Shown here in pieces: positions 17,399 to 37,500 of a stretch of DNA of 64,000 nt. A program made the position numbers and the translations under genes. The notes below the pieces were generated by a model. It made no database searches. It had not been told where the DNA came from and saw only the letters and a list, made by a program, of their open reading frames with translations. Positions within the stretch are counted from its first letter, which is position 1; each line of letters begins with the position of its first letter. The DNA is from Patescibacteria group bacterium (lineage in GTDB: Bacteria; Patescibacteriota; Patescibacteriia; Patescibacteriales; UBA12465). The stretch lies in contig JBBACQ010000001.1 in the NCBI GenBank assembly GCA_041656935.1, positions 29,459 to 93,458 of the forward strand. Reading direction: 5' to 3'.

Positions 17399-19120
17399 TT
17401 ATTGACCTAGCAAATATAACTCCTCTATTTCTTCCTGCGATAATATTCTATTATAAACACGGAAGTCAGCCATAGACCCATCTAAAAATAAGCTATACAG
17501 ATTAGGATCATTCGAATCATTTCTGGCACCAATAATAAAAGGAAATGAATTAGTATAAGAACCAATACTATCGTTACCGGCAGTTATCGATTGTAATTCA
17601 GTGTTAATATATAATTTTAAACCACTTGTCGCTGCCGGGATTGTTAATGTATAAAAAAACCAGCCTTCACCTAAATAATTAGAAACCGAATATTGAGCTG
17701 ACGATCCCCCAACTTGAACAACTATTTCCGATAAACTAAAGGCAAATCTGTATTGTGAGTTCGCTTGTAGGTTATTTGCGGTTTTGGCCCATAAATAAGA
17801 AACCCCTGAATCCACCCTAGACCACCAAGTAAAAGTCATATTATCCACTCTTGGTACTAAATTTATATTATTGCTAAAGTCTATCACATCATCTATATTA
17901 TCAAAGCTAGTTGCTCTACCACTTCTCCCTAAATAATCAGTTGCTCCGCCAATAGTTATTCCACCTTTGGCGGTCCCGTTATTACCATTACCACTCTTGT
18001 CATTTAGACCATCAACATTATCTAAAGCCCACCAAGCAACAAGACCATCAGTAAGCGTTGGCTTAGAGCTTTCGTATAATAGTGCTACTTCATCTGAAGA
18101 TAAGGTACGATTGTAAATACGAACATCGGAAATTTCCCCGCTAACATAATTTAAAACGGTCCAAGACCTAGCACCTATTCTGATAATTGGATTTGCAACA
18201 ACATTACTGGCGCTAATGTTCTGACTCTCGACTACCCCATTAACATATAATTTTTGAGTAGCAGTGTCATAACTCATGACAATATGCCTCCAGCTATTAA
18301 TATAATCAGTATCAGTAAATAATAAATCATGCCCTTCTAGTCTAAATGTAAAACCAGATGAAGATTGGAATAATGTGAAACCAGAAGAAACACCATCTCT
18401 AGCGTCAATAATATTATCAGATCCTACTGAATCTAATCTAACCCATAAAGAAATAGTGAAATTATTTACTCCATTCAAAGACATTGGAACATCAATATAA
18501 TCATTGCTTCCGTCAAAACTCGTAGCTCCACCAGCCTGTATATATCTATCTATAGAACTACCAATAGTAATACCACCAAAACCTGTTCCGTCATTACCAC
18601 TTGAAGATTTATCTTTTAGACCATCAATGTTATCCAAAGCCCAATGACCCACTAGCCCCCTTTGTAAGCCTACTAAGGGACCATGCTCAATTCCCGTTGG
18701 ATTAGCAATGGCTAAGCCAGCAGATAAATTAGAATTTTCTTCTCCTAAACAAAAATAAATTGAATATGATTCATTATTTTCTCCTAGCTCGCTATAAACA
18801 TATTGATTATCACTAACCGTGCAATCTCCATCCGGCGGAGTCGGAGCTTGGGGTAATCTATCCATATAAACGGTGTCGCCAAAATATATTGAGCTAGTAA
18901 CCGTGCTGGAGGACGGATAATATCCCTGATCACTAAAATACAATCTTAGAGCAACCTGCATTTGTTTGATATCAGATATTCTTTGAGAATCCCTAGCTTT
19001 GGCTCGAGTATCCCCTAAAGAAACAACAACCAAAGTTGCTAAAATTCCAATAATAGCAACCACAACCAAAATCTCTACCAAAGTAAAACCAGATTTTTTA
19101 AGCCTTGTGCTTTTAAACAT
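17399..19120 (-). CDS. Type IV pilin-like protein with two LamG-like domains
   Basis: The KKSGFTLVEILVVVAIIGILATL prepilin motif is followed by two repeats of the LVxxWALDNxDGLxDKSxxGNxGT...SFD LamG-like module, each ending in RxYNRxLSxxE. Confidence 0.8.
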   Translation of the reverse strand: MFKSTRLKKSGFTLVEILVVVAIIGILATLVVVSLGDTRAKARDSQRISDIKQMQVALRLYFSDQGYYPSSSTVTSSIYFGDTVYMDRLPQAPTPPDGDCTVSDNQYVYSELGENNESYSIYFCLGEENSNLSAGLAIANPTGIEHGPLVGLQRGLVGHWALDNIDGLKDKSSSGNDGTGFGGITIGSSIDRYIQAGGATSFDGSNDYIDVPMSLNGVNNFTISLWVRLDSVGSDNIIDARDGVSSGFTLFQSSSGFTFRLEGHDLLFTDTDYINSWRHIVMSYDTATQKLYVNGVVESQNISASNVVANPIIRIGARSWTVLNYVSGEISDVRIYNRTLSSDEVALLYESSKPTLTDGLVAWWALDNVDGLNDKSGNGNNGTAKGGITIGGATDYLGRSGRATSFDNIDDVIDFSNNINLVPRVDNMTFTWWSRVDSGVSYLWAKTANNLQANSQYRFAFSLSEIVVQVGGSSAQYSVSNYLGEGWFFYTLTIPAATSGLKLYINTELQSITAGNDSIGSYTNSFPFIIGARNDSNDPNLYSLFLDGSMADFRVYNRILSQEEIEELYLLGQ

Positions 19121-19189: not shown

Positions 19190-20941
19190 TTATTTTTTAG
19201 CAAAAATTTCTTTTTGTAAATTCTTGAAAAAAATATCTTTCTTAACTTCTTCAATTTTTTGTTCACCTCTTTTTCTAACAGCTAAAATCTTACCCTTAGC
19301 TTCTTTATCTCCAACAACAATAATATAGGGGACCCTTTCTCCAACCGCTTTTCTAATTTTATTAGCTACAGTTTCATTATCAATATCTAATTCTGATCTT
19401 AAGTCTAAATCTAAAAATTCTTTTTTCAATTCTTGACAATAATCAATATGCTTTTCTCCGACCGAAATTATTTTAACCTGAACTGGGGCCATCCAAACTG
19501 GGAAAGCTCCACCATAATGTTCAATTAAAACTCCAAAAAATCTTTCTAACGATCCTAATAAGGCTCGATGAATCATAATGGGACGCTCTTCTTTTTCTGG
19601 CCCTTGATAAGTCATATTAAATTTCTCTGGTAAATTAAAATCTAATTGGATGGTTGTTAATTGCCATTCTCGACCAATAGAGTCTTTGGCTTTAATATCT
19701 AATGATGGACCATAAAATTTAGCTCCACCCTCTTCTACTTCGTAAGGCATATTAAATTCACTCACTAACTCTTTAATAGTTTTCTCAGCTAAATCCCAAA
19801 TTTTATTATCCCCCATATAGTTCTTAATGTTCTTAGGATCACGCACCGCTACATATCCCTTTAAATCAGTAAAACCAAAAACTTTAAACATATCAAAGCT
19901 GAACTTTAGAACTTCACGATATTCATCAACAAATTGATCAGGCCGACAGATAACATGGGCATCGTCTTGAGTAAGACCTCTAACTCTTAACATCCCATTT
20001 AATTCCCCACTCTTTTCATAACGATAAACTGCCCCTAATTCATTCCATCTAAAAGGAAAATCTCGCCACGAACGTGGTTTGGATTTATAAATTTCAACAT
20101 GAAAAGGGCAATTCATTGGTTTAACAAAATATTTATCACCATCAACTTCTATCGGTGAATACATAGAATCTTTAAAAAATCCTAAATGACCACTAGTCTC
20201 CCATAATAAAGACCGACCAATATGTGGAGTATAGACAGTGTCGTAACCTCTTTGGCGATGAAATTGACGCCAAAAAGATTCAACCGCTTCCCTAACTTTA
20301 GCCAACTTAGGATGCCATAATATTAAACCAGGGCCAACTTTTTCACTAATAGAAAAAAGATCTAACTCCTTCCCCAAACGACGATGATCTCTTTTTTCAG
20401 CTTCTTTTAATAAATTTAAATAATCTTTTAAATCTTCGGCCTCAGGAAAAGCAAAGCCATAAATACGAGTTAACATCTTATTCTTTTCATCTCCCCGCCA
20501 ATAAGCTCCGGCAATTTTATTTAACTTAAAAGATCCCTCTTTTACCTTTCCCGAAGATTCTATATGAGGACCACGACATAAATCAGAAAACTCCCCTAAC
20601 TCATAATAGCTCACTTTAGTTTCTCCCTTCTCTTGGAGTTCTTCTAAAATTTCTAATTTATAAACATCTTGCCCAGACCGAGCTTCTTTAATGGCCTCAA
20701 CAATGTCTTTTTCTTTTCTAACAAATTTTAAATTTTGTTTAATAATGTGCTTCATCTTTTTTTCGATAATTAACAAATCAGCTTCGCTGATTTTTTTATC
20801 AAAAAAATCGATGTCATAATAGAAACCATTATCAACATCAGGCCCAATAGCAAACTTAACATCAGGATATGTTCTTAAAACTGCTAAAGCTAAAATATGA
20901 GCTAAAGAATGACGAACCATAATTAAATTTTCTTTTTCCAT
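19190..20941 (-). CDS. thrS: Threonyl-tRNA synthetase (no TGS domain)
   Basis: 583 aa. It begins in the editing domain (RHSLAHILA) and has a class II core and anticodon-binding domain. It is preceded by a Thr-specific T-box leader. Confidence 0.95.
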   Translation of the reverse strand: MEKENLIMVRHSLAHILALAVLRTYPDVKFAIGPDVDNGFYYDIDFFDKKISEADLLIIEKKMKHIIKQNLKFVRKEKDIVEAIKEARSGQDVYKLEILEELQEKGETKVSYYELGEFSDLCRGPHIESSGKVKEGSFKLNKIAGAYWRGDEKNKMLTRIYGFAFPEAEDLKDYLNLLKEAEKRDHRRLGKELDLFSISEKVGPGLILWHPKLAKVREAVESFWRQFHRQRGYDTVYTPHIGRSLLWETSGHLGFFKDSMYSPIEVDGDKYFVKPMNCPFHVEIYKSKPRSWRDFPFRWNELGAVYRYEKSGELNGMLRVRGLTQDDAHVICRPDQFVDEYREVLKFSFDMFKVFGFTDLKGYVAVRDPKNIKNYMGDNKIWDLAEKTIKELVSEFNMPYEVEEGGAKFYGPSLDIKAKDSIGREWQLTTIQLDFNLPEKFNMTYQGPEKEERPIMIHRALLGSLERFFGVLIEHYGGAFPVWMAPVQVKIISVGEKHIDYCQELKKEFLDLDLRSELDIDNETVANKIRKAVGERVPYIIVVGDKEAKGKILAVRKRGEQKIEEVKKDIFFKNLQKEIFAKK

Positions 20942-21165
20942 AGTTTTATTTTAATATATTTATATTATAAAAAATCCCGTTCCAATAATTCAAAGATTAC
21001 AAAAAAGTAAAAAATTGAATTACTAGAACGGGATTTCCCGCGGTTCCATCTAGTTTTCTCTTAACAAAAAGAGACTCCTTGATTATACTAATAAAAACTT
21101 AGTTTCTAATGAAATTGCCCTAAGGCAACTATAGTTGGTGACTACAGCAATCATTTTTAATTAGT
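20942..21165 (-). promoter_or_regulatory. T-box riboswitch leader (Thr specifier) with terminator/antiterminator
   Basis: The minus-strand antiterminator is CUAGA-[UGGAACC]-GCGGG-AAAU-CCCGU-UCUAG (21053-21023), with the canonical 7-nt UGGNACC bulge. The competing terminator pairs AAAUCCCGUUC (21037-21027) with GGAACGGGAUUU (20983-20972), followed by a U-run. The candidate specifier is GAA-ACU-A (ACU at 21103-21101). Confidence 0.8.
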
Positions 21166-21171
21166 ATTTAT

Positions 21172-21200
21172 ATTATACTATTATTTTTTAGAGAGGTCAA
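21172..21200 (-). promoter_or_regulatory. Promoter of the thrS leader
   Basis: Minus strand TTGACC (21200-21195), 17-nt spacer, TATAAT (21177-21172). Confidence 0.65.
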
Positions 21201-21214
21201 ATAGAAAGGTTAAA

Positions 21215-21786
21215 ATACGACGAACGAGCGTCGCAGTTTTTGACGAAAAAATTTCCTAAAATTTAGATCTCAAGAGTAAAAGCTTAAATTTTGGAGAAAG
21301 TTTGAGGAAAAAACGAGAAGCGAAGTGAGTCGTATTGAAAATACGACGAACGAGCATCGCAGTTTTTGACGAAAAAATTTCCTAAAATTTATTTTAGACC
21401 AAAGAGTAAAAGCTTAAATTTTGGAGAAAGTTTGAGGAAAAAACGAGAAGCGAAGTGAGTCGTATTAAAAATACGACGAACGAGCATCGCAGTTTTTGAC
21501 GAAAAAATTTCCTAAAATTTATTTTAGACCAAAGAGTAAAAGCTTAAATTTTGGAGAAAGTTTGAGGAAAAAACGAGAAGCGAAGTGAGTCGTATTAAAA
21601 ATACGACGAACGAGCATCGCAGTTTTTGACGAAAAAATTTCCCAAAATTTATTTTAGACCAAAGAGTAAAAGCTTAAATTTTGGAGAAAGTTTGAGGAAA
21701 AAACGAGAAGCGAAGTGAGTCGTATTGAAAATACGACGAACGAGCATCGCAGTTTTTGACGAAAAAATTTCCCAAAATTTAAGCTT
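21215..21786. repeat. Tandem repeat array, about 130-bp unit x 4.4 copies
   Basis: Unit starts (ATACGACGAA) lie at 21215, 21341, 21471, 21601 and 21731, giving periods of 126, 130, 130 and 130. Units 2-4 are near-identical. Each junction is the palindrome GTCGTATT-N4-AATACGAC. No ORF is present. Confidence 0.95.
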
Positions 21787-22800
21787 TTACATAGTGCGCA
21801 TTTGATTGGTGGCCTGTAAATCCAAAATAGTTTTCTTTAAACCATTTTCTAAAGTAACTACTGGCATCCAATCTAAATCATTCCGAATCTTATAAGTATC
21901 AGGGATATTTAATTGAGTCATAAAAATCTTATTAGGTTGAAAAACTATTTTCGATTTAGAAGAACTTAATTCAATAACTTTTTGGGCGACATCATAAAGT
22001 TTGATATCCTCTTCTGAACCAACATTAAAGGGGCCAGAAAAATCTGATCTAATAACTTTAACGGCCGCATCAATAACATCATCAACATAACAAAGAGAAG
22101 ACGAAAAATTCTCATCACCAAAAATAACGATATCTTCATTATTCAAAGCACTATTAATAAAATCTGGCAACATCTGATCATCTTTCAAGGCCATTCTAGG
22201 TCCATAAGTTCTAAATAATCGGATAATTTTAGCATCTATATTAAAAACCTGGCGATAATTACTAACTAAGGTTTCAGCAAAACGCTTTCCCTCATCATAG
22301 CAACTTCTTTCATTTAAAAAATCAACTTCTCCATTATAATCCTCTTTAGTTTTTAAATTTGGCGACGATTCCTTTCTTAAGCCATAAACCACTGAAGAAG
22401 AAAATTGCAAAAATTTAGACTTATATTTAACGGCTATGTCTAAGGCATTTTTTACCACATAAGAATTAGCTAAAAGAATCTTTTCTTTATTATCAATAAA
22501 ACTTCGCGCCGACATTGGACAGGCTAAATTATAAATCTCCTGGATGCCCTGAAAAGAAATTTTAAATTTATTTAACTCTACCAATTCCTCTAAATCTAAA
22601 GGAGAGCTTAAATCATGATTAATAAAAACAAAATTAGGATTTGATAATAAATGATCGATATTTTTGTGATTGCTACTAGAAAAATTATCAATACAAATAA
22701 CCTTATTTTCTTTAATAAGTTCATCACATAAATTAGAACCGATAAAACCAGCTCCTCCAATTACTAAAATGTTTTTTTTATCAAAAATTACTGGAGACAT
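21787..22800 (-). CDS. NAD-dependent epimerase/dehydratase, UDP-glucuronate decarboxylase (UXS)-like
   Basis: GGAGFIGSNL Rossmann motif and YDEGKRFAETL (YxxxK context typical of UXS). Confidence 0.82.
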   Translation of the reverse strand: MSPVIFDKKNILVIGGAGFIGSNLCDELIKENKVICIDNFSSSNHKNIDHLLSNPNFVFINHDLSSPLDLEELVELNKFKISFQGIQEIYNLACPMSARSFIDNKEKILLANSYVVKNALDIAVKYKSKFLQFSSSVVYGLRKESSPNLKTKEDYNGEVDFLNERSCYDEGKRFAETLVSNYRQVFNIDAKIIRLFRTYGPRMALKDDQMLPDFINSALNNEDIVIFGDENFSSSLCYVDDVIDAAVKVIRSDFSGPFNVGSEEDIKLYDVAQKVIELSSSKSKIVFQPNKIFMTQLNIPDTYKIRNDLDWMPVVTLENGLKKTILDLQATNQMRTM

Positions 22801-22936: not shown

Positions 22937-24991
22937 CTACTCTTTGATTTCAATAAAATCAACCACTACTCCTCCGGTATAAGAACTTTCTAAACCATAA
23001 AAAGAATCTACCAATTCACCTTTTCCGTTAAAAGCCCTAACATGAGGGGCTCCTCCGGGGCCAGCTCCGGTAATTACTTCATCTAAACCATCTTTATCTA
23101 AATCACCGACGGACAAATTAACCCCATTTCTGAAATTACTGGAATAAGCCAAAAAGCTTTTTATTTTTTGCCCATAAATATCAAAAATTCTTATTTCTGG
23201 TTCCCTATTAGCACCGGGAGAAACTACAATGTCTTTGTTCCCCTTGTTATCCTTGCCATAAATATTAGCCGTTTTAATTTTAACACCACCAAAATAATCC
23301 TCTTCATAAGCGAAAAAATGCCCAGTTAAATTACCCTGCCCGTCAAAAATTTTAACATGAGGTCCACCATTAGAAGCTGGTACCGTTATAATTTCACTTT
23401 TATTATCGCCGTTTAAATCACCAACGGCCAGATTAACTCCCCCATTAAATTTAGCATCATAGGCAAAAAATTGCCCCTGTAAAATTCCCTGATTATCAAA
23501 AATTCTAATATGAGGTCCACCGCTAGGACCAGGCGAGGTAATTATTTCTGTTTTTCCATCACCATTAATATCTCCTAAGGCAACATTAACTCCGCCTCTA
23601 AATTTAGCATCATAAGCAAAAAATTGACCAATTAATTCTCCTTGGTTATTAAAAATTCTAACATGAGGACCACCACCTTCACCCGCTCCAACAACTATCT
23701 CTTCGGAACCATCATTATCTAAATCTCCGCTGGTAATACTTATTGTCCCATTAAAGTCCGGACTATAGGCAAAAAAGCGCCCGGCCTCCTTACCTTTTTT
23801 TCTAACAAAACGAATGGTATTAAAAAGTTCAAACTCATTTTTATATTTTTGAATATTAGATTGAGGGAAAAGTAAAAAATAACCACCCAAGTTTTCCCAT
23901 TTTTCCAAAGCCCAATTAACTGAATTTAACAAATTCACTCGACCACTGCCCAAAGAGGAACCATAATCAGGATTTAAAGAATTAATATTATCAGAACTTT
24001 TTAAAAGCACCTCTAAAACTTGGTCATTATTTAGTTTAGGATTGACTCCTTTAATAACAGCTAAAGATCCACTAACCACCGCCGTTGACATAGAAGTTCC
24101 CGACCAATAGCCATCATAATATTTATTTCTTTGATTATCAATATCGTAAAAATAAGTGGAAAAAAAACTTATTCCTGGGGCTGAAATATCTACACATTTT
24201 TGCCCATAAGATGAAAAAGTAGCTTTCTGATCTAAAGTGTCAGTTCCGGCTACCCCTAAAACAATATTTTTATCTCCTGAACCGGTAAAACAAGCTGGGT
24301 ATAAAGGATTAGTGTCTAAGTTTCCCCCATTATTACCAGCGGCCGCCACTACAATAACACCGGCCCGATGAGCCCTTTCAATCGCCTCTTTAAATCCTTG
24401 ATTATAGCTTAAACCTGAAAAACTAAGATTAATAATGTCTGCTCCATTATTTATAGCATAATCCATAGCTCTAATAACATCATTTATTTTACCCTCACCC
24501 CATTCATTTAAGGCTCGTAGAGGCATTATTCTGGCATTAGAAGCAATTCCGCTAACTCCAATCCCATTATTACTTTTAGCGGAAATTATTCCAGCAATAA
24601 TAGTTCCATGATTTAAACCATCAGAACTACTAAGAGCTCCCTTCTTAGGACTAGGATCAAAATCATTAAGAACAAAATCCCAACCATTAACATCATCAAT
24701 AAAACCATTATTATCATCGTCAATACCATTATCTGAAATTTCAAACTTATTAAGCCAAATTCTTTCTTCTAAATCAGGGTGGTTTATATTTACCCCCGAA
24801 TCAATAACGGCCACAACAATTTTTTCGCCTAATAAAACCTTATCCCAAACAAAATTATAACCAATTTTATTTAGATACCATTGATTATTATAATACTGAT
24901 CGTTAGGCTTATTTTGAGCATTAACATTATTAGCTAAATATAAATTTACCAATAAAAAAAATGCTAAAATTAAAACAGTTTTCTTGTTCAT
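22937..24991 (-). CDS. Secreted subtilisin-like serine protease (S8) with C-terminal FG-GAP/VCBS-like repeats
   Basis: Catalytic triad contexts are VAVIDSGV (D), HGTIIAG (H) and GTSMSTAVVSG (S). There are about five repeats of FFAYDxxFxGGVNxAxGDxNGDGxxEII...GGPHxRIF. The start is set at the MNKKTVLILAFF signal peptide. Confidence 0.85.
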   Translation of the reverse strand: MNKKTVLILAFFLLVNLYLANNVNAQNKPNDQYYNNQWYLNKIGYNFVWDKVLLGEKIVVAVIDSGVNINHPDLEERIWLNKFEISDNGIDDDNNGFIDDVNGWDFVLNDFDPSPKKGALSSSDGLNHGTIIAGIISAKSNNGIGVSGIASNARIMPLRALNEWGEGKINDVIRAMDYAINNGADIINLSFSGLSYNQGFKEAIERAHRAGVIVVAAAGNNGGNLDTNPLYPACFTGSGDKNIVLGVAGTDTLDQKATFSSYGQKCVDISAPGISFFSTYFYDIDNQRNKYYDGYWSGTSMSTAVVSGSLAVIKGVNPKLNNDQVLEVLLKSSDNINSLNPDYGSSLGSGRVNLLNSVNWALEKWENLGGYFLLFPQSNIQKYKNEFELFNTIRFVRKKGKEAGRFFAYSPDFNGTISITSGDLDNDGSEEIVVGAGEGGGPHVRIFNNQGELIGQFFAYDAKFRGGVNVALGDINGDGKTEIITSPGPSGGPHIRIFDNQGILQGQFFAYDAKFNGGVNLAVGDLNGDNKSEIITVPASNGGPHVKIFDGQGNLTGHFFAYEEDYFGGVKIKTANIYGKDNKGNKDIVVSPGANREPEIRIFDIYGQKIKSFLAYSSNFRNGVNLSVGDLDKDGLDEVITGAGPGGAPHVRAFNGKGELVDSFYGLESSYTGGVVVDFIEIKE

Positions 24992-25032
24992 ACTGGTAAA
25001 TTTTAGCATAATTTTATAAAAAGGCAAAATGA

Positions 25033-27653: not shown

Positions 27654-28037
27654 TTATTTTTCATCTTTTTTCTTCTCGTATTCGGAAATTACTTTTTTTA
27701 ACCCTTCTACTGCTAAAACCGAACAATGAACTTTCTGCTGAGGCAGACCATCAAGTTTTTTAACTATTTTATTCCAATCAAATTTTTTGGCCTCTTCTAG
27801 AGTCATCCCCTTAACCATTTCGGTCATAACTGAAGCGGTGGCAATATTAGAAGCACAACCAAATGATAAAAATTTAATATCTTTAACTTTATCATCTTTA
27901 ACTTTAAGAGTAAAAGATAATTGATCTCCACAAACCATGTTCCCTACTTCGGCTCGAGCATCGGGTTTTTTTATTTCTCCGATATTTTTAGGATAACGGA
28001 AATGTTGCATGGTTTTTTTGCTATAATTTAAGGCCAT
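27654..28037 (-). CDS. iscU: Fe-S cluster scaffold protein, IscU/NifU N-terminal type
   Basis: 127 aa with three conserved Cys contexts: VCGDQL, GCASNIAT and VHCSVLA. Confidence 0.88.
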   Translation of the reverse strand: MALNYSKKTMQHFRYPKNIGEIKKPDARAEVGNMVCGDQLSFTLKVKDDKVKDIKFLSFGCASNIATASVMTEMVKGMTLEEAKKFDWNKIVKKLDGLPQQKVHCSVLAVEGLKKVISEYEKKKDEK

Positions 28038-28047
28038 ATATTTTAGA

Positions 28048-28935
28048 TTAATTCTTAAAAAAATTATTTGTTATTTTCCGAGCTTGTAAGGCACTCCGCT
28101 CCTTATCTTTTATTTCTAACATGATATCGAAATCTATTCCTCGAGTTTCCTCTAAATACCGTCTGAAATCACTCACTACTAAGCTTTGGGTGTGTTTCCC
28201 CTCTTTAGCCCCTTTTTCTTGGCTACTATAATCAGACATGATTATTCCATCCTTTTTACTCCAAGTTTTTTGAACAAGTTTTAAGGATTGATAAAAGCTC
28301 TCTCCATTATTTAAACAAAAATGATGAAAAGAGTCAAAAATAACTGGAATAGCTATTTTCTTAGAAATTGCTAAACAGTCTTTCAACGAATAGGATCGAT
28401 CGTCGTTTTCAATGACCAATCTTTTTTTTATTGACGACGGTAATTTTAAATAATTTTTAATAAACCGATCTATGGCTGAAACTTTATCTCCGTACACTCC
28501 CCCCACATGAATTTGAACTTTATGCTCAGGGTTTAAATTCATTAAATCTAGAACCTGACAATGCCACTTTAATTCAGCAATACTATTTCTCACAATTTCC
28601 TCTTGTGGAGAATTAATTACAGTAAATTGGCTAGGATGCATGGAAATCCTAAAATTATTATCCTTAATAAATTTTCCTAATTTCTGAAATCTTTTTTTAA
28701 AAAAAGACGGCCAATCGAAAGTGCAAATTGGATGGCTAGCAAAAGGAACTAGATTAGATCCAATTCTAAAAAATAAGAGATCGTTTTGGAGATTAAACTT
28801 TAAAATTTTCTCTAAACAATCTAAATTGTCATTAACTTTTTTTATTAAATTTTCCTCCGAATAATTAGCTAGTCTAAAAGTAGTATTAGAAGTGCAATTT
28901 ATTCTGGTGTTAATACAGGGATAACCTATTTTCAT
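28048..28935 (-). CDS. uvdE: UV damage endonuclease UvdE/UvsE
   Basis: MKIGYPCIN...TFRLANY N-terminus, with HPSQF and IHVGG motifs of the UvdE TIM-barrel family. Confidence 0.85.
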   Translation of the reverse strand: MKIGYPCINTRINCTSNTTFRLANYSEENLIKKVNDNLDCLEKILKFNLQNDLLFFRIGSNLVPFASHPICTFDWPSFFKKRFQKLGKFIKDNNFRISMHPSQFTVINSPQEEIVRNSIAELKWHCQVLDLMNLNPEHKVQIHVGGVYGDKVSAIDRFIKNYLKLPSSIKKRLVIENDDRSYSLKDCLAISKKIAIPVIFDSFHHFCLNNGESFYQSLKLVQKTWSKKDGIIMSDYSSQEKGAKEGKHTQSLVVSDFRRYLEETRGIDFDIMLEIKDKERSALQARKITNNFFKN

Positions 28936-29031
28936 TTTTGTAAATAAAAAATAATACTCTTATTATATACTTTTTTTCATAAAAAAACAAAGCCAAAGAT
29001 TTAGCTTTTTTAAAAAATACTTTAAAGATTA

Positions 29032-29772
29032 TTAGCGTAAAGTCCAGCCACCATCTACTACTAATACTTGGCCGGTAATATAATTAGCTTTATCAGAAGC
29101 TAAAAAAACAACCGCTTGAGCAATATCATCAGGAGTGCCCATTTTTTTCCAAGGGATAAGGGCTAAAAATCCTTTTTTAGCTTCTTCTGTCATTGTTTTA
29201 GTTGCTCCGGGGGTTTCAATAGCTCCGGGGGCTACAACATTTACATTTATTTTTTTATCAGCTAATTCTAAAGCCAAAGCTCTAGTTAATCCGTTTACCC
29301 CGCCCTTAGAAGCACAATAATGGACCAATCCTTCGAAACCAACTATTGAGGCAATTGATGAAATATTCACAATTTTGCCACCAGCCTTCATTTTTTTAAC
29401 CGCCGTTTGAGAACATAAAAAGATACTCTTTAAGTTGACATTAATTACTTCTTCCCAATTAGCTTCAGTCATCTCTGAAAAAGGGGTAAATGGAAAAATA
29501 CCAGCATTATTTACTAAGATGTCTAGCTTACCAAATTTTTTTATTGTTTTGGCTATCAAATTGTCGACCTCACCTTTTTTGGCGACATCACAGGCCACGG
29601 CTAATACTTTTACACCAAATTTTTTTAATTTTTCAGCTGTTTTTTCACAGTCCTTCTGTGTGATATCACTTACAACAACATTACAGCCCTCTTTAGCAAA
29701 AGCTAAGGCAATTCCTAGACCAATTCCCTGTTTGGCACCGGTTACTATAGCGACTTTATTTTTAAATTGCAT
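29032..29772 (-). CDS. Short-chain dehydrogenase/reductase (FabG-like)
   Basis: TGAKQGIGLG cofactor motif, NNAG, and the catalytic YCASK (YxxxK). Confidence 0.85.
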   Translation of the reverse strand: MQFKNKVAIVTGAKQGIGLGIALAFAKEGCNVVVSDITQKDCEKTAEKLKKFGVKVLAVACDVAKKGEVDNLIAKTIKKFGKLDILVNNAGIFPFTPFSEMTEANWEEVINVNLKSIFLCSQTAVKKMKAGGKIVNISSIASIVGFEGLVHYCASKGGVNGLTRALALELADKKINVNVVAPGAIETPGATKTMTEEAKKGFLALIPWKKMGTPDDIAQAVVFLASDKANYITGQVLVVDGGWTLR

Positions 29773-29845
29773 ATTTTTATTGTTAATTATGAGATTTAAT
29801 TAGATAGAATAACGAATTCCAAAAAAGTTAAAAAAAGAAGAATAT

Positions 29846-30319
29846 TTAACTTAATGTCGCTAGCCAAACTCCGATATAATGAGTTAAGATAATTACTATA
29901 ATAGTGATTAATAAATGTTCTAATACTACTGGATAAGGATTTATTTTTTGTTTTTTGGCCAGATAATAACTAAATATTATTATTAAAAATAAGCCCCAGA
30001 CAACACAAAAAATAATGGCTGTAGAAAGTTCTAAAAATAAAATAGGGATAACAAACATTAAAGCAAAAACAAATTTAGATAAAAAAGTGGCAATTGTTGA
30101 CTCCCAAACTTCTTTGGTTGTATTTTTGTTATCAACTTCTTCTGACATATGAATTCCTAACGCATCTGACATGGCATCAGCTATTGCTATTACCAGTATG
30201 CCACTAATAATAACAATATCAGAGCTAGTACTAGAATGTAACCCGATGATCAAACCTAAGGTTGTTATTACACCGGATGTTAAGCCGAAACTAAAGCCTT
30301 TTTTTATTGAAATTTTCAT
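29846..30319 (-). CDS. Small VIT1/CCC1-like membrane protein (possible Fe/Mn transporter)
   Basis: 157 aa, polytopic, with an AIADAMSDALGIHMSEE acidic motif reminiscent of short VIT-family proteins. Weak assignment. Confidence 0.5.
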   Translation of the reverse strand: MKISIKKGFSFGLTSGVITTLGLIIGLHSSTSSDIVIISGILVIAIADAMSDALGIHMSEEVDNKNTTKEVWESTIATFLSKFVFALMFVIPILFLELSTAIIFCVVWGLFLIIIFSYYLAKKQKINPYPVVLEHLLITIIVIILTHYIGVWLATLS

Positions 30320-30426
30320 AAATAATAGTCAAAGTTAATTTATTTGGTCTAAAATTTATTTTAGCTAACATCCACCGATATCTGATATTTTGTTGAAATA
30401 CCAATTAGCCGACGGACAAATAGAAA

Positions 30427-31182
30427 TTATTTGGTTGCTTCAATCTTTAAACTTTCAAGGGGAATGCCTTGGTATTGTCTTTTACTGATATCTTTATCTT
30501 CTGACAAAATTTTTATTTTAAATCCAGCATCTTCAATAATTTTTAAATATTCATCTTTTAATAAAGCTCCACCTACACATCCAGCAATTAATTCATCGTT
30601 ACTTTTCTGTTCGTCAGAGATGTCTCCTAGTAAAACAATATCTGAATTATAAATTTTACCACCTTTTTTAAGTACCCGGAATGCTTCTTTGAAGACTTTA
30701 GACTTATCTGGTGCTAGATTAATAACACAGTTACTTATAATCACATCAATAGAATCACTTTCCACGGGTAGTTTTTCTATATCTCCCAATCGAAATTCAA
30801 CATTATTATAATTAAATTTTTCAGCATTTTTCTTTGCTTTAGCAATCATCTCTGGCGTTATATCTATTCCGATTACTCGTCCAAGTTTACCTACTTTTTT
30901 AACAGCAAGAAAACAATCGAAACCAGCTCCTGAGCCTAAATCTAAGACAACATCGCCCTCCTTGATATTTCCCATCCCCGTTGGATTACCACAACCAAGA
31001 CCAAGATTAGATTCGGAAATAGCTTCTATTTCCTGATCAGAATAGCCAATACTTTTGGCAATTTGTTTATTGACATTTTTATCGTTACAACCACAACTAT
31101 TACTACAACATCCAGCACCGTTTTGAGTTGCAATTTTGCTATAATGCTTTTTAACGATTTGTTTAATATTATTTTTTTTCAT
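30427..31182 (-). CDS. arsM: Arsenite S-adenosylmethionine methyltransferase-like (ArsM family)
   Basis: Cys-rich N-terminus (GCCSNSCGC), the LGLGCGNP motif, and the SAM-binding VLDLGSGAGFD. Confidence 0.78.
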   Translation of the reverse strand: MKKNNIKQIVKKHYSKIATQNGAGCCSNSCGCNDKNVNKQIAKSIGYSDQEIEAISESNLGLGCGNPTGMGNIKEGDVVLDLGSGAGFDCFLAVKKVGKLGRVIGIDITPEMIAKAKKNAEKFNYNNVEFRLGDIEKLPVESDSIDVIISNCVINLAPDKSKVFKEAFRVLKKGGKIYNSDIVLLGDISDEQKSNDELIAGCVGGALLKDEYLKIIEDAGFKIKILSEDKDISKRQYQGIPLESLKIEATK

Positions 31183-31195
31183 AAGTTTGTTTGAT

Positions 31196-32143
31196 TTAAA
31201 ATTTTCGTTGTCTGGTTCGGTTTTCTAGATATCTCTCAATGGCTTCTTTGGAGGTTAACCAATCCCGGCCCTCTTTATACGCCTCCAGCTTTCCTTGTCT
31301 GGCAAGTAAATTAAGATATTTGGCAGAAAAAGGAGCGGTTTTAGCTATTTCCGCAAGCCTCAAAAATTTTTCCTGTTTTTGTGTTGACGGAGTTAATGTC
31401 TTTAGATAAATATCCAATGAACGCTCGATGGACTGAGCAATAAATTTTACCAGTGGTTCAAACTTACCCTTATCCGATTTATCCAAAACATCATAATATT
31501 TTTTTCGGTCAGTTTTCATGATCGTGACCAATGGATATCCAGCTTGCATCAAAAATAGATTCATCGTTAAGCGTGCCGTTCTACCATTGCCGTCAAAAAA
31601 CGGATGAATATAGACTAATTTATGATGCAATAAAGCAGAAAGTTCAATAATATTCAGTTTGTTTTTTTGTGAGTTTAACCAAATAATTAATTCTCTCATT
31701 TTATTTGGTACTTGTAGCGCATTTGGTGGAATATGGTCTGCGCCACCAATAATTACATTAGCATTTCTATATCGGCCGGCCCATTCCTTATCCGTTTCCT
31801 GCAAAATAATTTGATGTAAGTTTTTAATAAGCATTTCGGAAACAGTGTGTTTTTTGTCTTTATCTATTAAGTCATACAAATATTCTAGTGCGGCATGGTG
31901 GTCTTTCGCTTCCAAATGGTCTTTCAAAGGCTTACCTTTCACTGTCAGGCCTTCATTAATAACTAAAAAGGTCTCTTTTAAAGTTAAAGAGTTGCCTTCA
32001 ATAGCATTTGAGTTATAGGTCATTTCAATTTGGAATTTTTCTCGAAGTTTTTGCACTGCAGACTTAGGTAAGGGGCGCAGTTTGTTGAGTTTGGACAGTT
32101 TTTCTTCCAAACGATTTTTTACGATTGATGATAAGTAAGTCAT
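31196..32143 (-). CDS. fic: Fic family protein (class II, autoinhibited) with C-terminal HTH-like domain
   Basis: Canonical Fic motif HPFFDGNGRTARL. N-terminal inhibitory motif S-N-A-I-E-G ([S/T]xxxE[G/N]). The C-terminus (AKYLNLLARQGKLEAYKEGRDWL) looks like a DNA-binding fold. Confidence 0.9.
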   Translation of the reverse strand: MTYLSSIVKNRLEEKLSKLNKLRPLPKSAVQKLREKFQIEMTYNSNAIEGNSLTLKETFLVINEGLTVKGKPLKDHLEAKDHHAALEYLYDLIDKDKKHTVSEMLIKNLHQIILQETDKEWAGRYRNANVIIGGADHIPPNALQVPNKMRELIIWLNSQKNKLNIIELSALLHHKLVYIHPFFDGNGRTARLTMNLFLMQAGYPLVTIMKTDRKKYYDVLDKSDKGKFEPLVKFIAQSIERSLDIYLKTLTPSTQKQEKFLRLAEIAKTAPFSAKYLNLLARQGKLEAYKEGRDWLTSKEAIERYLENRTRQRKF

Positions 32144-32176
32144 AAAATGCTTAATATGGTTTAGTTAATTATTTAC

Positions 32177-32204
32177 ATTATACCATATTAAGGAATTTGG
32201 TCAA
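32177..32204 (-). promoter_or_regulatory. Strong sigma70-type promoter for fic
   Basis: Minus strand TTGACC (32204-32199), 16-nt spacer, extended -10 TGgTATAAT (32185-32177), about 30 nt upstream of the fic ATG. Confidence 0.65.
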
Positions 32205-32295
32205 GACTGTATATTCAGCTTAGTTTTTGAATAATTCAATGCTTCAAGCGCCGTTTGATCTCTTGCCAGATTAAACAATTTTTTACTCACGCTCA

Positions 32296-32378
32296 GATCA
32301 ACGTTTGCGTATATCTGATGTGCGAAGCATGTGGGCGGAATGACCGCAGGGAGTGGAGCCAGATATACGCTGTTAGGC
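32296..32378 (-). other. attC-like recombination site C (3' end of cassette C)
   Basis: The minus strand reads GCCTAAC-a-GCGTATATCTGG...loop...CAGATATACGC-aaac-GTTGATC. It begins 10 nt after the stop codon of the 264-aa ORF. Confidence 0.65.
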
Positions 32379-32404
32379 GATGTAAATTTTAGACTTTTTT
32401 AAAT
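32372..32404. repeat. Terminal inverted repeat of cassette C, distal arm
   Basis: GTTAGGCGATGTAAATTTTAGACTTTTTTAAAT matches the reverse complement of 33190-33222 at 31 of 33 positions. It overlaps the last 5 codons and the stop of the ORF. Confidence 0.85.
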
Positions 32405-33183
32405 CTCGCGACAAATTCATCTCTTGTCATCACAACTTGTCTTACTTCCGGCTTCTCTCCCGTTGTTAGATATTTTTCCAGAGATCTCTTGTTGTATTGC
32501 AATGCTAAATGTTGAACGGCGGTAACGTCACTATCTTCAGGTGAAATGTCCTGTATTGAAATTTCATCACCCAATAGCATTCTAGCTTTCGCCTCCATTT
32601 TTTGATTAAGTAACCAAGATTTCATAACAATTTTATCTGCTGTGATTTCACCCGCTTCTAATTTAGCCCCTATGGACTGAAAGCCATCTATGATTTTAGA
32701 AATTAGTTCTGCGCTTTCCACGCCCGTTGGCCTGATGTGTAATGAAATTTCATTATTGTTGTCTTTTTTATATGCGATAACATCATTGACATGCACCATG
32801 CCAGACCCTTCTTCCACCTCATCTCTTTTTCTATTCCATTCAGTGAGTAATAGATTGGCGATCGGTGAAGTAGCTAATCTGTCGGCAAAGCTATCTCTGG
32901 AAAAATTATTTTCTTGACATTCCTGTAAAGAGGAATTAATTATTTGATACAATTCTTGTTTTGCTTTGGACTGTTGAGTTTCTTCGCTGGAGCCACTTAA
33001 TCTAGAAACGTAAAGATCAACCATTCTTTCTGTAATTGCATTCGTATCTTCAGCACCTTCGGTATGGAGTAAATTTTGATATAGTTCAAATCCACCAACA
33101 AATCTAATAAACGCAGGATTTGTTAAGATCATATCCCTTGTTCCTTCTTGATGAATTTGTCGCGATTGTTCACCTTCTATCAT
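32389..33183 (-). CDS. Hypothetical protein (cassette C ORF)
   Basis: 264 aa with no recognisable motif. By eye it is richer in G+C and poorer in Lys/Asn/Ile than its neighbours. Confidence 0.6.
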   Translation of the reverse strand: MIEGEQSRQIHQEGTRDMILTNPAFIRFVGGFELYQNLLHTEGAEDTNAITERMVDLYVSRLSGSSEETQQSKAKQELYQIINSSLQECQENNFSRDSFADRLATSPIANLLLTEWNRKRDEVEEGSGMVHVNDVIAYKKDNNNEISLHIRPTGVESAELISKIIDGFQSIGAKLEAGEITADKIVMKSWLLNQKMEAKARMLLGDEISIQDISPEDSDVTAVQHLALQYNKRSLEKYLTTGEKPEVRQVVMTRDEFVARFKKV

Positions 33184-33189
33184 ATTGGT

Positions 33190-33222
33190 ATTTAAAAAAG
33201 TCTAAAATTTATTTCGCCTAAC
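33190..33222. repeat. Terminal inverted repeat of cassette C, proximal arm
   Basis: ATTTAAAAAAGTCTAAAATTTATTTCGCCTAAC, the partner of 32372-32404. It ends 6 nt upstream of the ORF ATG. Confidence 0.85.
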
Positions 33223-33367
33223 ATCGGGCTTAAGGGAAGTTTGATTTTTTCAGAGCTGGAACGCAGATTTTTTGAGGCAACCCACAAAAAATCAAGTGAC
33301 CTCGAAAAAATCAAATTTGGGTCGGAGAAACCTGCAAGGTTTCGGAGCCCTTTAAGCCCTGTTCTAT
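33216..33367 (-). other. attC-like recombination site B (3' end of cassette B)
   Basis: The minus strand reads ATAGAAC-a-GGGCTTAAAGGG...about 110-nt structured loop...CCCTTAAGCCC-gat-GTTAGGC. There is one extra A in the 5' arm. The loop contains nested TTTGATTTTTTC/GAAAAAATCAAA and GATTTTTTG/CAAAAAATC pairings. Confidence 0.65.
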
Positions 33368-33516
33368 TCGTCCGTTAGGACTTGATTTTTAGTGCAACGA
33401 TGCCGAAGGCAAAAAATCAAAGTAATTTCAGGGGCGTATTCAATCAAGCGAACACAGTGAGCCATCAAGAATAAGTATCAAGGGGCAATTTTCAGTCCGT
33501 CGTAGGGGGAATTCCG
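33361..33516. repeat. Terminal inverted repeat of cassette B, distal arm (with inserted hairpins)
   Basis: Its blocks GTTCTATTC, GTAATTTCAGGGG, GGGGCAATTTTC and GGGGGAATTC are the complement of blocks in 34106-34175, in the same order. Confidence 0.7.
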
Positions 33517-33557
33517 TTTATTTTTTGCTTTTTTTTCTCTAAAAAAGAAGATTTGTT

Positions 33558-34049
33558 TTAAATTTCTATTTGAAATATTGCAATAATTAACATAAGAACA
33601 CATGTCAAGGCAAGCGTATAATAATAAAGCCAAGATTGTTTTTTATTATACAGATAATAAATAATTCCAAGAGTCAACATTGTAATTATTATTCCAGCAA
33701 TCCAAGGTGTTTGATATAAAAATAGACCTATTGTAATGAACAAGGTCATTAATGGAACTGTCATAAAAGTTGACTTGTAAATATCCTTTAATTTTAATCG
33801 AAAGAAAAAATAAGAGATTGCCATAATAATAACAAGAAATGAAATATGTAACAATGGTGGAAGCCAGAATAATTGCGAATCAGGATTAAAAGGCATAAAT
33901 AACCCAATAATCCTTCGAATTGTATTTTGATAAAGAGCATCAAAAAGGAATGTTAGAATTAGCAAAATATATCCGAAAACCGCTATGGCTAAAGCTGATA
34001 AAAAACCTTTAATCAAAGGATTCCTAAAAAAGTGCTTTAATTTTCTCAT
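33558..34049 (-). CDS. Hypothetical polytopic membrane protein (cassette B ORF)
   Basis: 163 aa with 4-5 predicted TM helices. No family recognised. Confidence 0.6.
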   Translation of the reverse strand: MRKLKHFFRNPLIKGFLSALAIAVFGYILLILTFLFDALYQNTIRRIIGLFMPFNPDSQLFWLPPLLHISFLVIIMAISYFFFRLKLKDIYKSTFMTVPLMTLFITIGLFLYQTPWIAGIIITMLTLGIIYYLYNKKQSWLYYYTLALTCVLMLIIAIFQIEI

Positions 34050-34105
34050 ATATTGAATGGTTTAGTATAAATAATTTCCTATCTATATTTTTTATTATAT
34101 TTTGA

Positions 34106-34175
34106 ATTCTCCCCAGTCGTTTTTGTTTTTAGAAAATTGCCCCCGTCGTTAGCCCCTGAAATTATTGAATAGAAC
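34106..34175. repeat. Terminal inverted repeat of cassette B, proximal arm
   Basis: GAATTCTCCCC...GAAAATTGCCCC...CCCCTGAAATTATTGAATAGAAC, the partner of 33361-33516. Confidence 0.7.
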
Positions 34176-34270
34176 GTTTCGGCATATCTGATGTTTGCCG
34201 TAGCGTAGCGGAGGCAAATATGGGTGGAGGCTTTTGTATAAAAGCCGTAACCAGATATGCCGTGTTATGT
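34169..34270 (-). other. attC-like recombination site A (3' end of cassette A)
   Basis: The minus strand reads ACATAAC-ac-GGCATATCTGG...loop with TTTGCC/GGCAAA and GGCTTTT/AAAAGCC sub-hairpins...CAGATATGCC-gaaac-GTTCTAT. Confidence 0.65.
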
Positions 34271-34385
34271 GATGTGCATGTTTTACTTTAATCCCGATAG
34301 CAATCGGGATTGCTCTAAAAAAGAATTTTAATTTTGTTTTTTTGTTTTGAAAAAATGAAAGAGGGGTTAGGGGTGAATTTCATTT
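34262..34385. repeat. Terminal inverted repeat of cassette A, distal arm (about 120 nt)
   Basis: GTTATGTGATGTGCATGTTTTACTTT, then a hairpin, then CTCTAAAAAAGAATTTTAATTTTGTTTTTT and AAAGAGGGGTTAGGGGTG. These match the reverse complement of 37265-37390 block by block. The internal hairpin is replaced by a different hairpin of similar form. Confidence 0.8.
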
Positions 34386-34411
34386 TTTCAAAACTCCTTA
34401 TTTTTTAATGA

Positions 34412-34849
34412 TTATCTATCAGCATCCTTTGCTGCTTTTTCGATCCAGTTTCCCATATTATTATATCCGTCATCATTATTCCATAAATAAAAATCATATC
34501 CGCTTGGGATTCTTCCACATCTTTCAGAAGTATTGCCTTGGAGATCTTTTATTTTGCTTACATCTATTCCTAAAAGTCCATTTCCTATTTCTTTGCTTTT
34601 TTCTATTTCATATTTTACCCACCTGCTGCTACAAGTTTTTTCTCCCACAAGCACAACCGTAACAGATGTTCCTTTTAATTGATTATCAATCCAATTTTTA
34701 ATTGCTTGATCACCTTGTTTTTTTATCTTTTCAAAATCAGCTGCGTCTATAAAGCCCGCAGCTTCTTTTCCTTGTGTTACCCAGCTGTTTCTAACGACCA
34801 TAGCTCGAGAGACATCTTTATATTTGAAACTAAAAAATACTTTTCTCAT
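34412..34849 (-). CDS. TIR-like domain protein (DUF1863 / ThsB-like)
   Basis: 145 aa. The N-terminal KVFFSFKYKDV strand, VVLVGEKTCSSRWVKYEIEKS (SxWVxxEI) and GNGLLGIDVSKIKD match the MTH538/DUF1863 TIR-like pattern as I know it. Confidence 0.78.
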   Translation of the reverse strand: MRKVFFSFKYKDVSRAMVVRNSWVTQGKEAAGFIDAADFEKIKKQGDQAIKNWIDNQLKGTSVTVVLVGEKTCSSRWVKYEIEKSKEIGNGLLGIDVSKIKDLQGNTSERCGRIPSGYDFYLWNNDDGYNNMGNWIEKAAKDADR

Positions 34850-34859
34850 AATTTTAAAT

Positions 34860-35264
34860 TTAATTTATTAAATATATTATAAATAGGGCGGCACTGATTA
34901 AAGGTAAATAAAAAATTAAAAGAGTTGGTGAAAACATAGAGTAGATTTGAGTATTTTTCTTTAATTTTTTATATTCTTCTACATCCATAGAAAAATCTAT
35001 TTCTTCCTCTTTTAGTTTTCTAACATGATTATATAAATCTCTAAACAATCTTTCTTGCGAAAGAAAGTATCCGTCCAAAATCCAAAAAACCAAGGTAATA
35101 ACTATAAGAAAATAAATGACATAATCAGAATTATTTGCCTTTGAAAACAAAGCAAGAAGTGCGCCAATCAAAGTAATAGTCCATCCTCTTAGAAAAAACA
35201 AATTTCCAGCCATTCGGCTAATTATATTTTGTATAAATTCAAGATGTTTGCGTTTATTTTCCAT
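34860..35264 (-). CDS. Small multi-TM protein, candidate membrane effector partner of the TIR-like protein
   Basis: 134 aa. Two adjacent TM helices (WTITLIGALLALF and VIYFLIVITLVFWILDGYF), a charged helix (ERLFRDLYNHVRKLKEEE) and a C-terminal TM. A 10-nt gap separates it from the TIR-like gene. Confidence 0.6.
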   Translation of the reverse strand: MENKRKHLEFIQNIISRMAGNLFFLRGWTITLIGALLALFSKANNSDYVIYFLIVITLVFWILDGYFLSQERLFRDLYNHVRKLKEEEIDFSMDVEEYKKLKKNTQIYSMFSPTLLIFYLPLISAALFIIYLIN

Positions 35265-35267
35265 AGT

Positions 35268-36245: not shown

Positions 36246-36247
36246 AA

Positions 36248-37228: not shown

Positions 37229-37264
37229 ATTTTTATTATTACATTTTTCCCCTTATAAATAAAT

Positions 37265-37390
37265 CGTTTTCGTAGCGGAGCGGAGAAAACACCTTATACC
37301 CCCTTTTAATAAATAAAAAACAAAATTCAAATTCTTTTTTAAAGCTGGGCGATAGCCCAAAAGTAAAACATGCATTTCACATAACTGGTT
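37265..37390. repeat. Terminal inverted repeat of cassette A, proximal arm
   Basis: Partner of 34262-34385. It starts at the attI crossover (ACATAAC, 37379-37385). Confidence 0.8.
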
Positions 37391-37500
37391 ATTATACGAA
37401 CAATACTTAAAAAATACATTAATTTAAGCATTGTTTATTTAAGATATGCTATAATAATCAAAGTTAAAACTATTAATATTTTAATATAATTCAAATAAAT
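37379..37500 (-). other. attI-like region with crossover site GTTATGT
   Basis: Minus-strand GTTATGT (37385-37379) forms the first G|TT junction. A TATAAT (37396-37391, minus) lies 5 nt upstream of it and points into the cassettes. The motif ATTTAAG occurs twice (37422-37428 and 37436-37442). Confidence 0.5.
37447..37455 (+). promoter_or_regulatory. Extended -10 element for the recombinase gene
   Basis: TGcTATAAT lies about 45 nt upstream of the ATG at 37501. No good -35 is present. Confidence 0.4.

Follow-up and report, generated by a model that had tools for sequence, protein, structure and literature searches.

A Tandem Array of 130-bp Foldback Units between an Epimerase Gene and thrS in a Patescibacteria Group Bacterium

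Introduction

Bacterial intergenic minisatellites, or variable-number tandem repeats (VNTRs), exemplified by the mycobacterial MIRU loci, are head-to-tail, non-coding repeats of tens to about 100 bp that lie between co-directional genes; their inner copies are homogenised, their edge copies are diverged, and their presence or absence differs between close lineages. MIRUs occupy many loci per genome and are not long palindromes. Here, we describe a tandem array of 130-bp units found in a 64,000-nt stretch of DNA (the window) from a 177.7-kb contig of the metagenome-assembled genome of an uncultured Patescibacteria group bacterium (assembly GCA_041656935.1, contig JBBACQ010000001.1, positions 29,459 to 93,458). 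The array fills the space between a gene coding for an NAD-dependent epimerase/dehydratase and thrS, the gene of threonyl-tRNA synthetase. It shares the traits listed above with MIRU-type loci, but differs from them in having a 127-nt foldback as its unit and in being known from one locus.

Foldbacks are typical of the ERIC, REPIN, and MITE families, whose members, like the unit studied here, are extragenic imperfect palindromes of ca. 100–130 nt; their inverted termini are conserved, and a hairpin is predicted for them as single-stranded DNA or as mRNA. These families are dispersed in many copies, whereas the array is accompanied by neither dispersed copies nor a linked RAYT transposase gene in the sequence examined. 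There is also a likeness to the REP/BIME clusters found in the 3′ untranslated regions (3′ UTRs) of enterobacterial operons: in both cases, hairpin repeats come right after a stop codon, between genes that are (or, for the array, may be) co-transcribed, where a role as 3′-end hairpins or partial terminators is plausible. BIMEs, however, form a family spread over the whole genome, each BIME being a mosaic in which REPs of about 35 nt alternate in orientation, while the array is built of direct copies of a 130-bp foldback at a solitary locus. By analogy, the array would work most like an intergenic minisatellite with a unit resembling ERIC, REPIN, or MITE foldbacks.

The explanation that we favour, and to which we give about an even chance of being right, is that the array is a young, non-coding foldback minisatellite limited to this lineage and its closest relative. 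The evidence for a minisatellite comprises the head-to-tail arrangement of the copies, the near-identical inner units and diverged edge unit, the foldback nature of the unit, the variable slot in which the array is found, its solitary locus, its lack of coding capacity, the way independent assemblies break at it, and the minus-strand hairpins with T-runs in units 2–5.

Results

Structure of the Array

Tandem Repeats Finder, run on the whole window, returned one long-period array, located at 21212–21781 (period 130, 4.4 copies, 97% matches, score 1049). This result, together with a direct reading of the units (Table 1), bears out a preliminary description of the window, in which a 130-bp × 4.4 tandem array had been reported. 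Pairwise identities likewise agree with its statement that units 2–4 are nearly identical and that the 126-bp unit 1 is diverged: units 2–4 are 98.5–100% identical among themselves, while unit 1 is 92.4% identical to them. Unit 4 differs from units 2 and 3 by two transitions, at unit positions 44 (T/C) and 128 (A/G). The divergence of unit 1 is located almost wholly in the apical loop, which carries a 5-nt deletion, a 1-nt insertion, and two substitutions; further changes are found at positions 17 and 128. The units abut head to tail and are not separated by unique spacers, which distinguishes them from a CRISPR array. Head-to-tail direct repeats with a non-coding unit of 10 to >100 bp are the hallmark of minisatellites and VNTRs, and the array has this form.

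The flanks of the array are those given earlier, i.e., the epimerase stop codon on one side and the thrS promoter and leader on the other. With its start 12 bp upstream of the thrS −35 box and its end at the epimerase stop codon, the array does not extend into the conserved control region of thrS. A 13-bp direct duplication is present exactly at the boundary between the array and the promoter (21189–21214). This second copy of the thrS −35 region, which on the minus strand reads TTTTAACCTTTCT and ATTTGACCTCTCT, might have been left behind by the slippage or recombination from which the array arose.

No frame of the array is open beyond 49 codons, and six-frame translations of three units had no matches among 5.8 billion proteins. 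A 32-codon open reading frame (ORF) on the minus strand, MLVRRIFNTTHFASRFFLKLSPKFKLLLFGLK, is found in each of units 2–5, and was considered as a possible type I toxin-like peptide. This candidate was rejected: the ORF is without a Shine-Dalgarno sequence, has no homologue, and loses its ATG in unit 1, where it is abolished by a G at unit position 17. The ORF probably occurs by chance.

Folding of the Unit

When the unit was aligned to its own reverse complement, 88 of the 127 columns were Watson-Crick pairs. The unit is a single 127-nt imperfect inverted repeat, or foldback, and tandem copies of such a repeat must give a palindrome at every junction and at every unit centre. The palindromic junctions and the second hairpin of the preliminary description are one property seen in two views, and these two features and the internal direct repeat, previously listed as separate, all belong to one foldback. 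Their details were correct in part. The junction palindrome, GTCGTATT-RAA-AATACGAC, has the 8-bp arms ascribed to it, but its spacer is 3 nt long and not 4 nt. The second, central hairpin is present (in unit 2, its arms are at about 21378–21429), but the AAGCTT sequence abuts the 3′ arm of the hairpin rather than being at its centre. The internal direct repeat was found as described, in the form of AACGAGCATCGCAGT and AACGAGAAGCGAAGT (12 of 15 positions identical), and is located within purine-rich mismatched stretches. An imperfect palindrome with perfect 8-bp inverted termini and a predicted hairpin is the shape that characterises REPIN, MITE, and ERIC elements.

The calculated minimum free energy of the 127-nt core was −32.4 kcal/mol for the plus strand and −19.5 kcal/mol for the minus strand. 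The corresponding values for the full 130-nt unit were −33.1 kcal/mol (z −5.1 versus shuffled sequences) and −19.7 kcal/mol (z −2.6). The unit folds better than shuffled sequences because it is a DNA palindrome. The earlier suggestion that the units could encode a repeated structured RNA is not refuted. The Rfam check that had been proposed for the array was run and gave no credible family match: with Rfam 15, nothing in the window reached the gathering threshold, and the array, with E values admitted up to 10, returned only miRNA-type noise (E ≥ 0.76).

The plus strand of the array is 63% purine, versus about 45% in the flanks, and the mismatches in the arms are nearly all purine-purine on this strand. 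It is the purine-purine internal loops, and not G·U pairs, that cause the strand asymmetry in fold energy. A strand bias in G·U pairs was considered as an RNA signature and rejected, for the unit contains only one such pair. Of the variable positions, position 44 remains paired with either base (T/C) in the plus strand alone, and either base at position 17 (A/G) is compatible with the small hairpin in the minus strand alone; since the two favour opposite strands, together they provide no strand signal.

Search for Further Copies

Neither the 8-mer arm nor the whole unit has a second copy or a half-site elsewhere in the window. Comparison of the units with 94 related loci (0.92 Mb) and with the masked window, using blastn (word size 7) and nhmmer, returned noise only, and two units compared by blastn with phage and plasmid collections had no match. 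The junction motif had no matches among GTDB species genomes, one match in IMG/VR, which is an unrelated phage intrinsic terminator, and two matches in JGI metagenomes, both of them solitary hairpins in unrelated contexts, with about two matches expected by chance. Two further unit segments had no matches among viral contigs. The search for the unit in related loci, phages, and plasmids, recommended in the preliminary description, yielded one unit edge in a single relative (L095; see below) and no other copy.

An AT-rich metagenome contig (L004, JACCEE010115156.1) contains, at 2100–2170, a solitary long hairpin in which GAGTCGTATT-TGA-AATACGACGA equals the junction core. The match is nested in a larger stem, AAGCGAATTC...GAATCGCTT, located between two genes, and the hairpin is similar in style. 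We judged it to be a chance match.

The Slot between the Epimerase Gene and thrS in Related Genomes

The window epimerase is 79–83% identical to proteins of Falkowbacteria-like genomes. The block NifU-ZIP-FtsW-L25-S8 peptidase-epimerase-X-thrS is syntenic in relatives (referred to below by locus numbers), with X being a variable slot. The slot holds one or two pilin-like genes in L085, L088, L091, and L096, and a short unnamed ORF in L094. It is empty in L097, L099, and L100, where a TTGACT promoter and a homologous T-box leader are found within about 2–30 nt of the epimerase stop codon. The L101 contig ended 12 nt past this codon.

The closest homologue of the window epimerase is that of L095 (83% identical). 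Past the stop codon, the L095 sequence reads AAGTTTAAATTTTGGCAAATTTTTTTGTC, which is identical to the unit edge of the window at 26 of 29 positions; the contig then ends. The presence or absence of the array varies among relatives and, as far as these genomes indicate, the array is restricted to the lineage of the window plus its nearest relative, L095, and the slot gains and loses DNA.

Pilin-like genes with an N-terminal methylation motif and Fib_succ_major or LamG domains move in and out of this slot, being present there in 0, 1, or 2 copies. In the window, where the pilin-like loci are at 17399–19120 and 53445–54512, a LamG pilin-like gene is located downstream of thrS instead. The possibility that the array is the decayed 5′ end of the slot's pilin-like gene was considered and rejected, with the best p value in 16 local-alignment tests against dinucleotide shuffles being 0.02.

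Table 1. Features of the array, of its surroundings, and of the corresponding slot in relatives. Positions are those of the window unless a locus number is given.
Feature	Position	Strand	Remarks
Unit 1	21214–21339	+	126 bp; diverged; adjoins thrS promoter; apical loop remodelled
Unit 2	21340–21469	+	130 bp; reference unit; AATACGAC at start, GTCGTATT plus AAA spacer at end
Unit 3	21470–21599	+	130 bp; 100% identical to unit 2
Unit 4	21600–21729	+	130 bp; two differences from units 2/3: 21643 (T>C), 21727 (A>G)
Partial unit 5	21730–21781	+	52 bp; identical to unit 4 start; stops 5 nt short of epimerase stop codon
Junction palindrome GTCGTATT-GAA-AATACGAC	21329–21347		8-bp arms, 3-nt spacer; outer arms of the unit-long inverted repeat
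Junction palindrome, AAA spacer	21459–21477		same 8-3-8 structure
Junction palindrome, AAA spacer	21589–21607		same 8-3-8 structure
Junction palindrome, GAA spacer	21719–21737		same 8-3-8 structure
Small hairpin UGCGAUG-CUCGUU-CGUCGUA, then UUUU(C/U)	21732–21751, 21602–21621, 21472–21491, 21342–21361	−	−6.5 kcal/mol; weak-terminator-like
Promoter-like TTGACG-N18-TATTTT	21366–21395, 21496–21525, 21626–21655	+	9/12; absent from unit 1 and partial unit
Exact 14-mer TAATACGACTCACT	21454–21467, 21584–21597	−	equals T7 promoter −17 to −4
CAATACGACTCACT	21324–21337, 21714–21727	−	13/14
NAD-dependent epimerase/dehydratase gene, annotated UDP-glucuronate decarboxylase-like	21787–22800	−	337 aa; stop 21787–21789; array directly after stop
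thrS promoter TTGACC-N17-TATAAT	21172–21200	−	11/12; near-consensus; start of homology with relatives
thrS T-box leader	20972–21171	−	Rfam T-box 21021–21171, 42.8 bits, E 7e-8; terminator hairpin 20972–21036, −35.3 kcal/mol
thrS (threonyl-tRNA synthetase)	19190–20941	−	583 aa
Pilin-like gene(s) in slot, L085	7206–8327		
Pilin-like gene(s) in slot, L088	7048–9084		
Pilin-like gene(s) in slot, L091	7017–8459		
Pilin-like gene(s) in slot, L096	1325–1405		
Island genes UvdE, SDR, VIT1, S-adenosylmethionine (SAM) methyltransferase, Fic+HTH			
Island gene, Thoeris ThsB-TIR protein	34412–34849		
Island genes, C5 DNA methylase + HaeIII-type endonuclease	35268–37228		
Island gene, tyrosine integrase	37501–38310	+	

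Possible Origin of the Array

If the array is a foldback minisatellite, a hairpin-forming segment would have arisen or landed in the recombination-prone slot that separates the epimerase stop codon from the thrS −35 box and is the only variable place in an otherwise conserved block of genes. The segment would then have been multiplied and homogenised by slipped-strand mispairing or unequal recombination. Such slippage or recombination would explain both the 98.5–100% identity of the inner units and the drift of the edge unit. The epimerase gene and thrS are both on the minus strand. In a transcript reading through from the epimerase gene, a long hairpin of about −19.5 kcal/mol would recur four to five times, each time along with a weak hairpin followed by a U-run. 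Five terminator-like sites were observed, versus 0.6 ± 0.8 in shuffled sequences, and the first small hairpin on the minus strand begins 36 nt past the epimerase stop codon. At most incidentally, the array might act as stacked, perhaps stabilising, 3′-UTR hairpins or as leaky terminators, separating epimerase transcription from the thrS promoter and T-box leader. No dedicated function for the array could be shown.

Several observations weigh against this explanation. The small hairpins are weak (−6.5 kcal/mol, followed by 4–5 U residues) compared to the genuine thrS terminator (−35.3 kcal/mol), and relatives with an empty slot are without any terminator between the epimerase gene and thrS, so that an insulating role is not required. 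Long-period arrays in 0.95 Mb of related loci are almost all coding, notably the FG-GAP repeats of the S8 peptidase, and non-coding minisatellites are therefore no routine by-product in these genomes. Finally, the unit edge of L095 is 90% identical (26/29) to that of the window, while the adjacent coding DNA is 81% identical and its third-codon positions only 63% (P about 0.0015). This conservation hints at constraint, or at shared ancestry more recent than would be expected for a neutral repeat, though 29 AT-rich bases are too few to carry weight.

The direct importance of a minisatellite at this site would be small. It would document that the reduced genomes of the candidate phyla radiation (CPR)/Patescibacteria can harbour a non-coding foldback minisatellite of high identity, placed in the hot-spot slot of an otherwise syntenic housekeeping block.

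Alternative Explanations

The array might go back to a foldback of the MITE, ERIC, or REPIN type that was mobile but non-autonomous, was inserted once, and was then amplified locally, with AATACGAC/GTCGTATT being the recognition ends of a transposase. We consider this origin unlikely, although several traits fit. The unit, an imperfect palindrome of 127 nt, has perfect termini of 8 bp and lacks coding capacity, and the slot in which it sits is one where relatives have acquired or lost DNA. In size and form, the unit is like ERIC. However, no second copy, be it solitary or partial, was found in the 64 kb of the window, which by our estimate make up several percent of a typical CPR genome, or in the 0.92 Mb of related loci. 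There is no Y1/RAYT or other transposase in the window. The one recombinase is encoded in an unrelated island 16 kb away, and this small defence island, with its integrase, is the window's only mobile element. No target-site duplication can be read, one end of the array being a truncated unit. The size and form of the unit also resemble those of REPINs, for which a linked RAYT transposase is defining and which can also occur in ordered clusters (PMC3116915). The many dispersed copies expected of REPIN/REP sequences are missing from the available sequence, and a linked RAYT (Y1 transposase) is missing from the ORFs of the window.

It is also unlikely, in our view, that the array is a selectively maintained, lineage-specific cis element modulating expression of thrS or the epimerase gene, either as tandem hairpin RNAs, which would be small RNAs or else form a structured 3′ UTR or an insulator, or as an array of multiple operators. 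The observation in favour of this reading is the L095 unit edge, with its 26/29 identity versus 63% at third-codon positions. Should the conservation in L095 hold true over whole units, the array would be a rare lineage-specific regulatory repeat in CPR bacteria, located beside a T-box-controlled thrS. Tandem T-box leaders of the thrZ type do not account for the array, as the only T-box match lies outside it and the units are without the invariant AGATGGAACCGCGGG motif.

According to a further, quite improbable explanation, each of the tandem units is a small-RNA gene that is read from the plus strand, antisense to the genes on either side, has its own promoter, and produces a ca. 95-nt transcript that would end at the junction hairpin followed by U5. 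Promoter-like sites do occur at the same offset in units 2–4, the plus-strand fold is much stronger than the minus-strand one (−33.1 versus −19.7 kcal/mol, z −5.1), the plus strand has more purines (63%) than the flanks (about 45%), a fold of −19 kcal/mol was calculated for the junction hairpin together with the adjoining A6 and U5 runs, and the unit edge is conserved in L095. Other observations speak against this explanation. A TATTTT −10 element at a distance of N18 is inferior to the TAnnAT/N17 promoters of this clade; such matches are common in DNA with 31% GC, and unit 1 and the partial unit have none. The strand asymmetry stems from purine-purine internal loops, with one G·U pair only; the hairpin directly preceding the U-run in units 2–5 is just −1.9 kcal/mol; and there is no Rfam match. 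Tandem small-RNA gene arrays such as cyanobacterial NsiR1 are similar in that every short tandem unit combines a promoter-like site and a hairpin ahead of a U-run. Here, in contrast, the putative promoter and terminator are weak and missing from two of the five units, and conservation extends no further than one relative.

That a dimeric protein binds the 8-3-8 palindrome every 130 bp, and either regulates thrS or the epimerase gene or organises local DNA, is improbable. Four perfect 19-bp palindromes at regular spacing directly upstream of a strong promoter would suit such a protein, and the general form of the array recalls sopC-type centromeres, which are tandem units each with a short inverted repeat. 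In both sopC centromeres and iterons, as in the array, tandem direct repeats contain a short inverted repeat, but the sopC unit is 43 bp and iterons are 17–22 bp, while the unit here is 130 bp, is located in a conserved chromosomal housekeeping block with no adjacent par or rep gene, and is absent in relatives. Palindromes arise of geometric necessity when foldback units are in tandem; the nearest complete one is about 140 bp upstream of the −35 box, and the motif is found nowhere else in the 64 kb. T-box control of thrS is kept without the array in at least six relatives.

The preliminary description had also raised the possibility of iterons, or of an origin- or partition-type array, and this proposal was not supported. 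There is no DnaA-box cluster near the array and no parS site at up to two mismatches, and GC skew is negative across all 64 kb, with no switch. The genes are co-directional across the array site, and no rep or par (ParA/ParB) gene, nor a nearby regulator gene, is found among the about 50 annotated ORFs of the window (Pfam). The 8-mer arm is confined to the array, which is absent at the syntenic site in most relatives. The tests for a replication origin with iterons and for a partition centromere were thus negative.

An assembly artefact, in which a single unit or a mixture of strains was mis-assembled as a tandem array, is very improbable. With units 2 and 3 being identical, a short-read assembler cannot fix the number of copies, and the exact copy number is unverified for this reason. 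However, the sequence cannot be spelled with fewer than three distinct unit types and, in addition, a truncated unit. A Logan unitig of the window's own organism, from an independent run (L001, SRR18595299), contains an identical epimerase gene and ends 30 nt into the sequence common to units 4 and 5, i.e., at k − 1 for k = 31, which is the behaviour expected at a repeat. The contig of the diverged relative L095 has the same unit edge and breaks at the same site, terminating 33 nt beyond the epimerase stop codon, within the homologous unit edge. We conclude that the array is genuine. In practice, assemblies are likely to break at the array, and strains of this lineage could be typed by it as a VNTR marker.

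The least probable explanation, which we regard as effectively refuted, is that the junctions contain T7-type promoters, from which the single-subunit RNA polymerase of a phage would read along the minus strand in the direction of thrS: beyond the exact 14-mer at two junctions and the 13/14 match, CAATACGACTCACT, at the other two, both correctly reported in the preliminary description, identity to the T7 consensus is 0/9 over −3 to +6, i.e., over the melting and initiation region, and neither a single-subunit RNA polymerase nor a prophage-like gene set is present among the about 50 ORFs of the window (Pfam), with no match in phage collections. The likeness to T7 class III promoters is thus confined to −17 to −4, and the earlier observation that the match stops before the initiation region, as well as the caution that it might be a coincidence, proved correct. 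A T7-type promoter is defined by a 23-nt consensus, from −17 to +6, including the TATA melting element at −4 to −1 and GGG/GGA at +1; overall, 14 of 23 positions are identical. The expected number of occurrences per window is low, at 8e-4 for this 14-mer and 4.8e-3 for any 14-mer of the T7 consensus, and matches with at most one mismatch had a mean of 0.01 in dinucleotide shuffles. The four sites are, however, copies of one event, 8 of the 14 bases are simply the palindrome arm, and when many windows are scanned, a per-window probability of about 0.005 is nothing unusual. There is also no biological rationale for identity to the recognition core of T7 itself in a Patescibacteria genome; promoter specificity differs even between T7 and T3. 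The match is a coincidence, and illustrates how a palindrome can, by chance, come to contain a conspicuous 14-nt stretch of identity with the T7 promoter.

Flanking Genes and Other Features of the Window

The upstream region of thrS was aligned in seven genomes, i.e., the window, L097 (1255–1508), L099, L100, L085, L088, and L091. Homology sets in precisely at the −35 box and extends through a specifier hairpin, whose ACC (Thr) codon is invariant in all seven genomes, as is the T-box motif AGATGGAACCGCGGGAAANCCCGTTCTAG; the specifier stem contains compensatory changes. At 42.8 bits, the match of the thrS leader to the Rfam T-box model is below the gathering score of 93. The leader would appear to be of a variant T-box type that has a short Stem I and escapes the Rfam threshold.

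The S8 peptidase gene (22937–25027), a neighbour of the epimerase gene, contains, in its C-terminal half, coding tandem repeats of 153 bp (51 aa) of the FG-GAP type, at about 23000–23700. These repeats are kept across relatives (L001, 1031–1401; L085, 5052–5548; and L088, L091, and L094), and are likely to be a short-read assembly breakpoint too.

Between nifU (27654–28037) and iscS (38314–39465) is a ca. 10-kb island at 28048–38310, the genes of which are listed in Table 1; nifU and iscS are adjacent in L085 and L088. Judging by its gene content, the region looks like an integrated defence island in a CPR genome.

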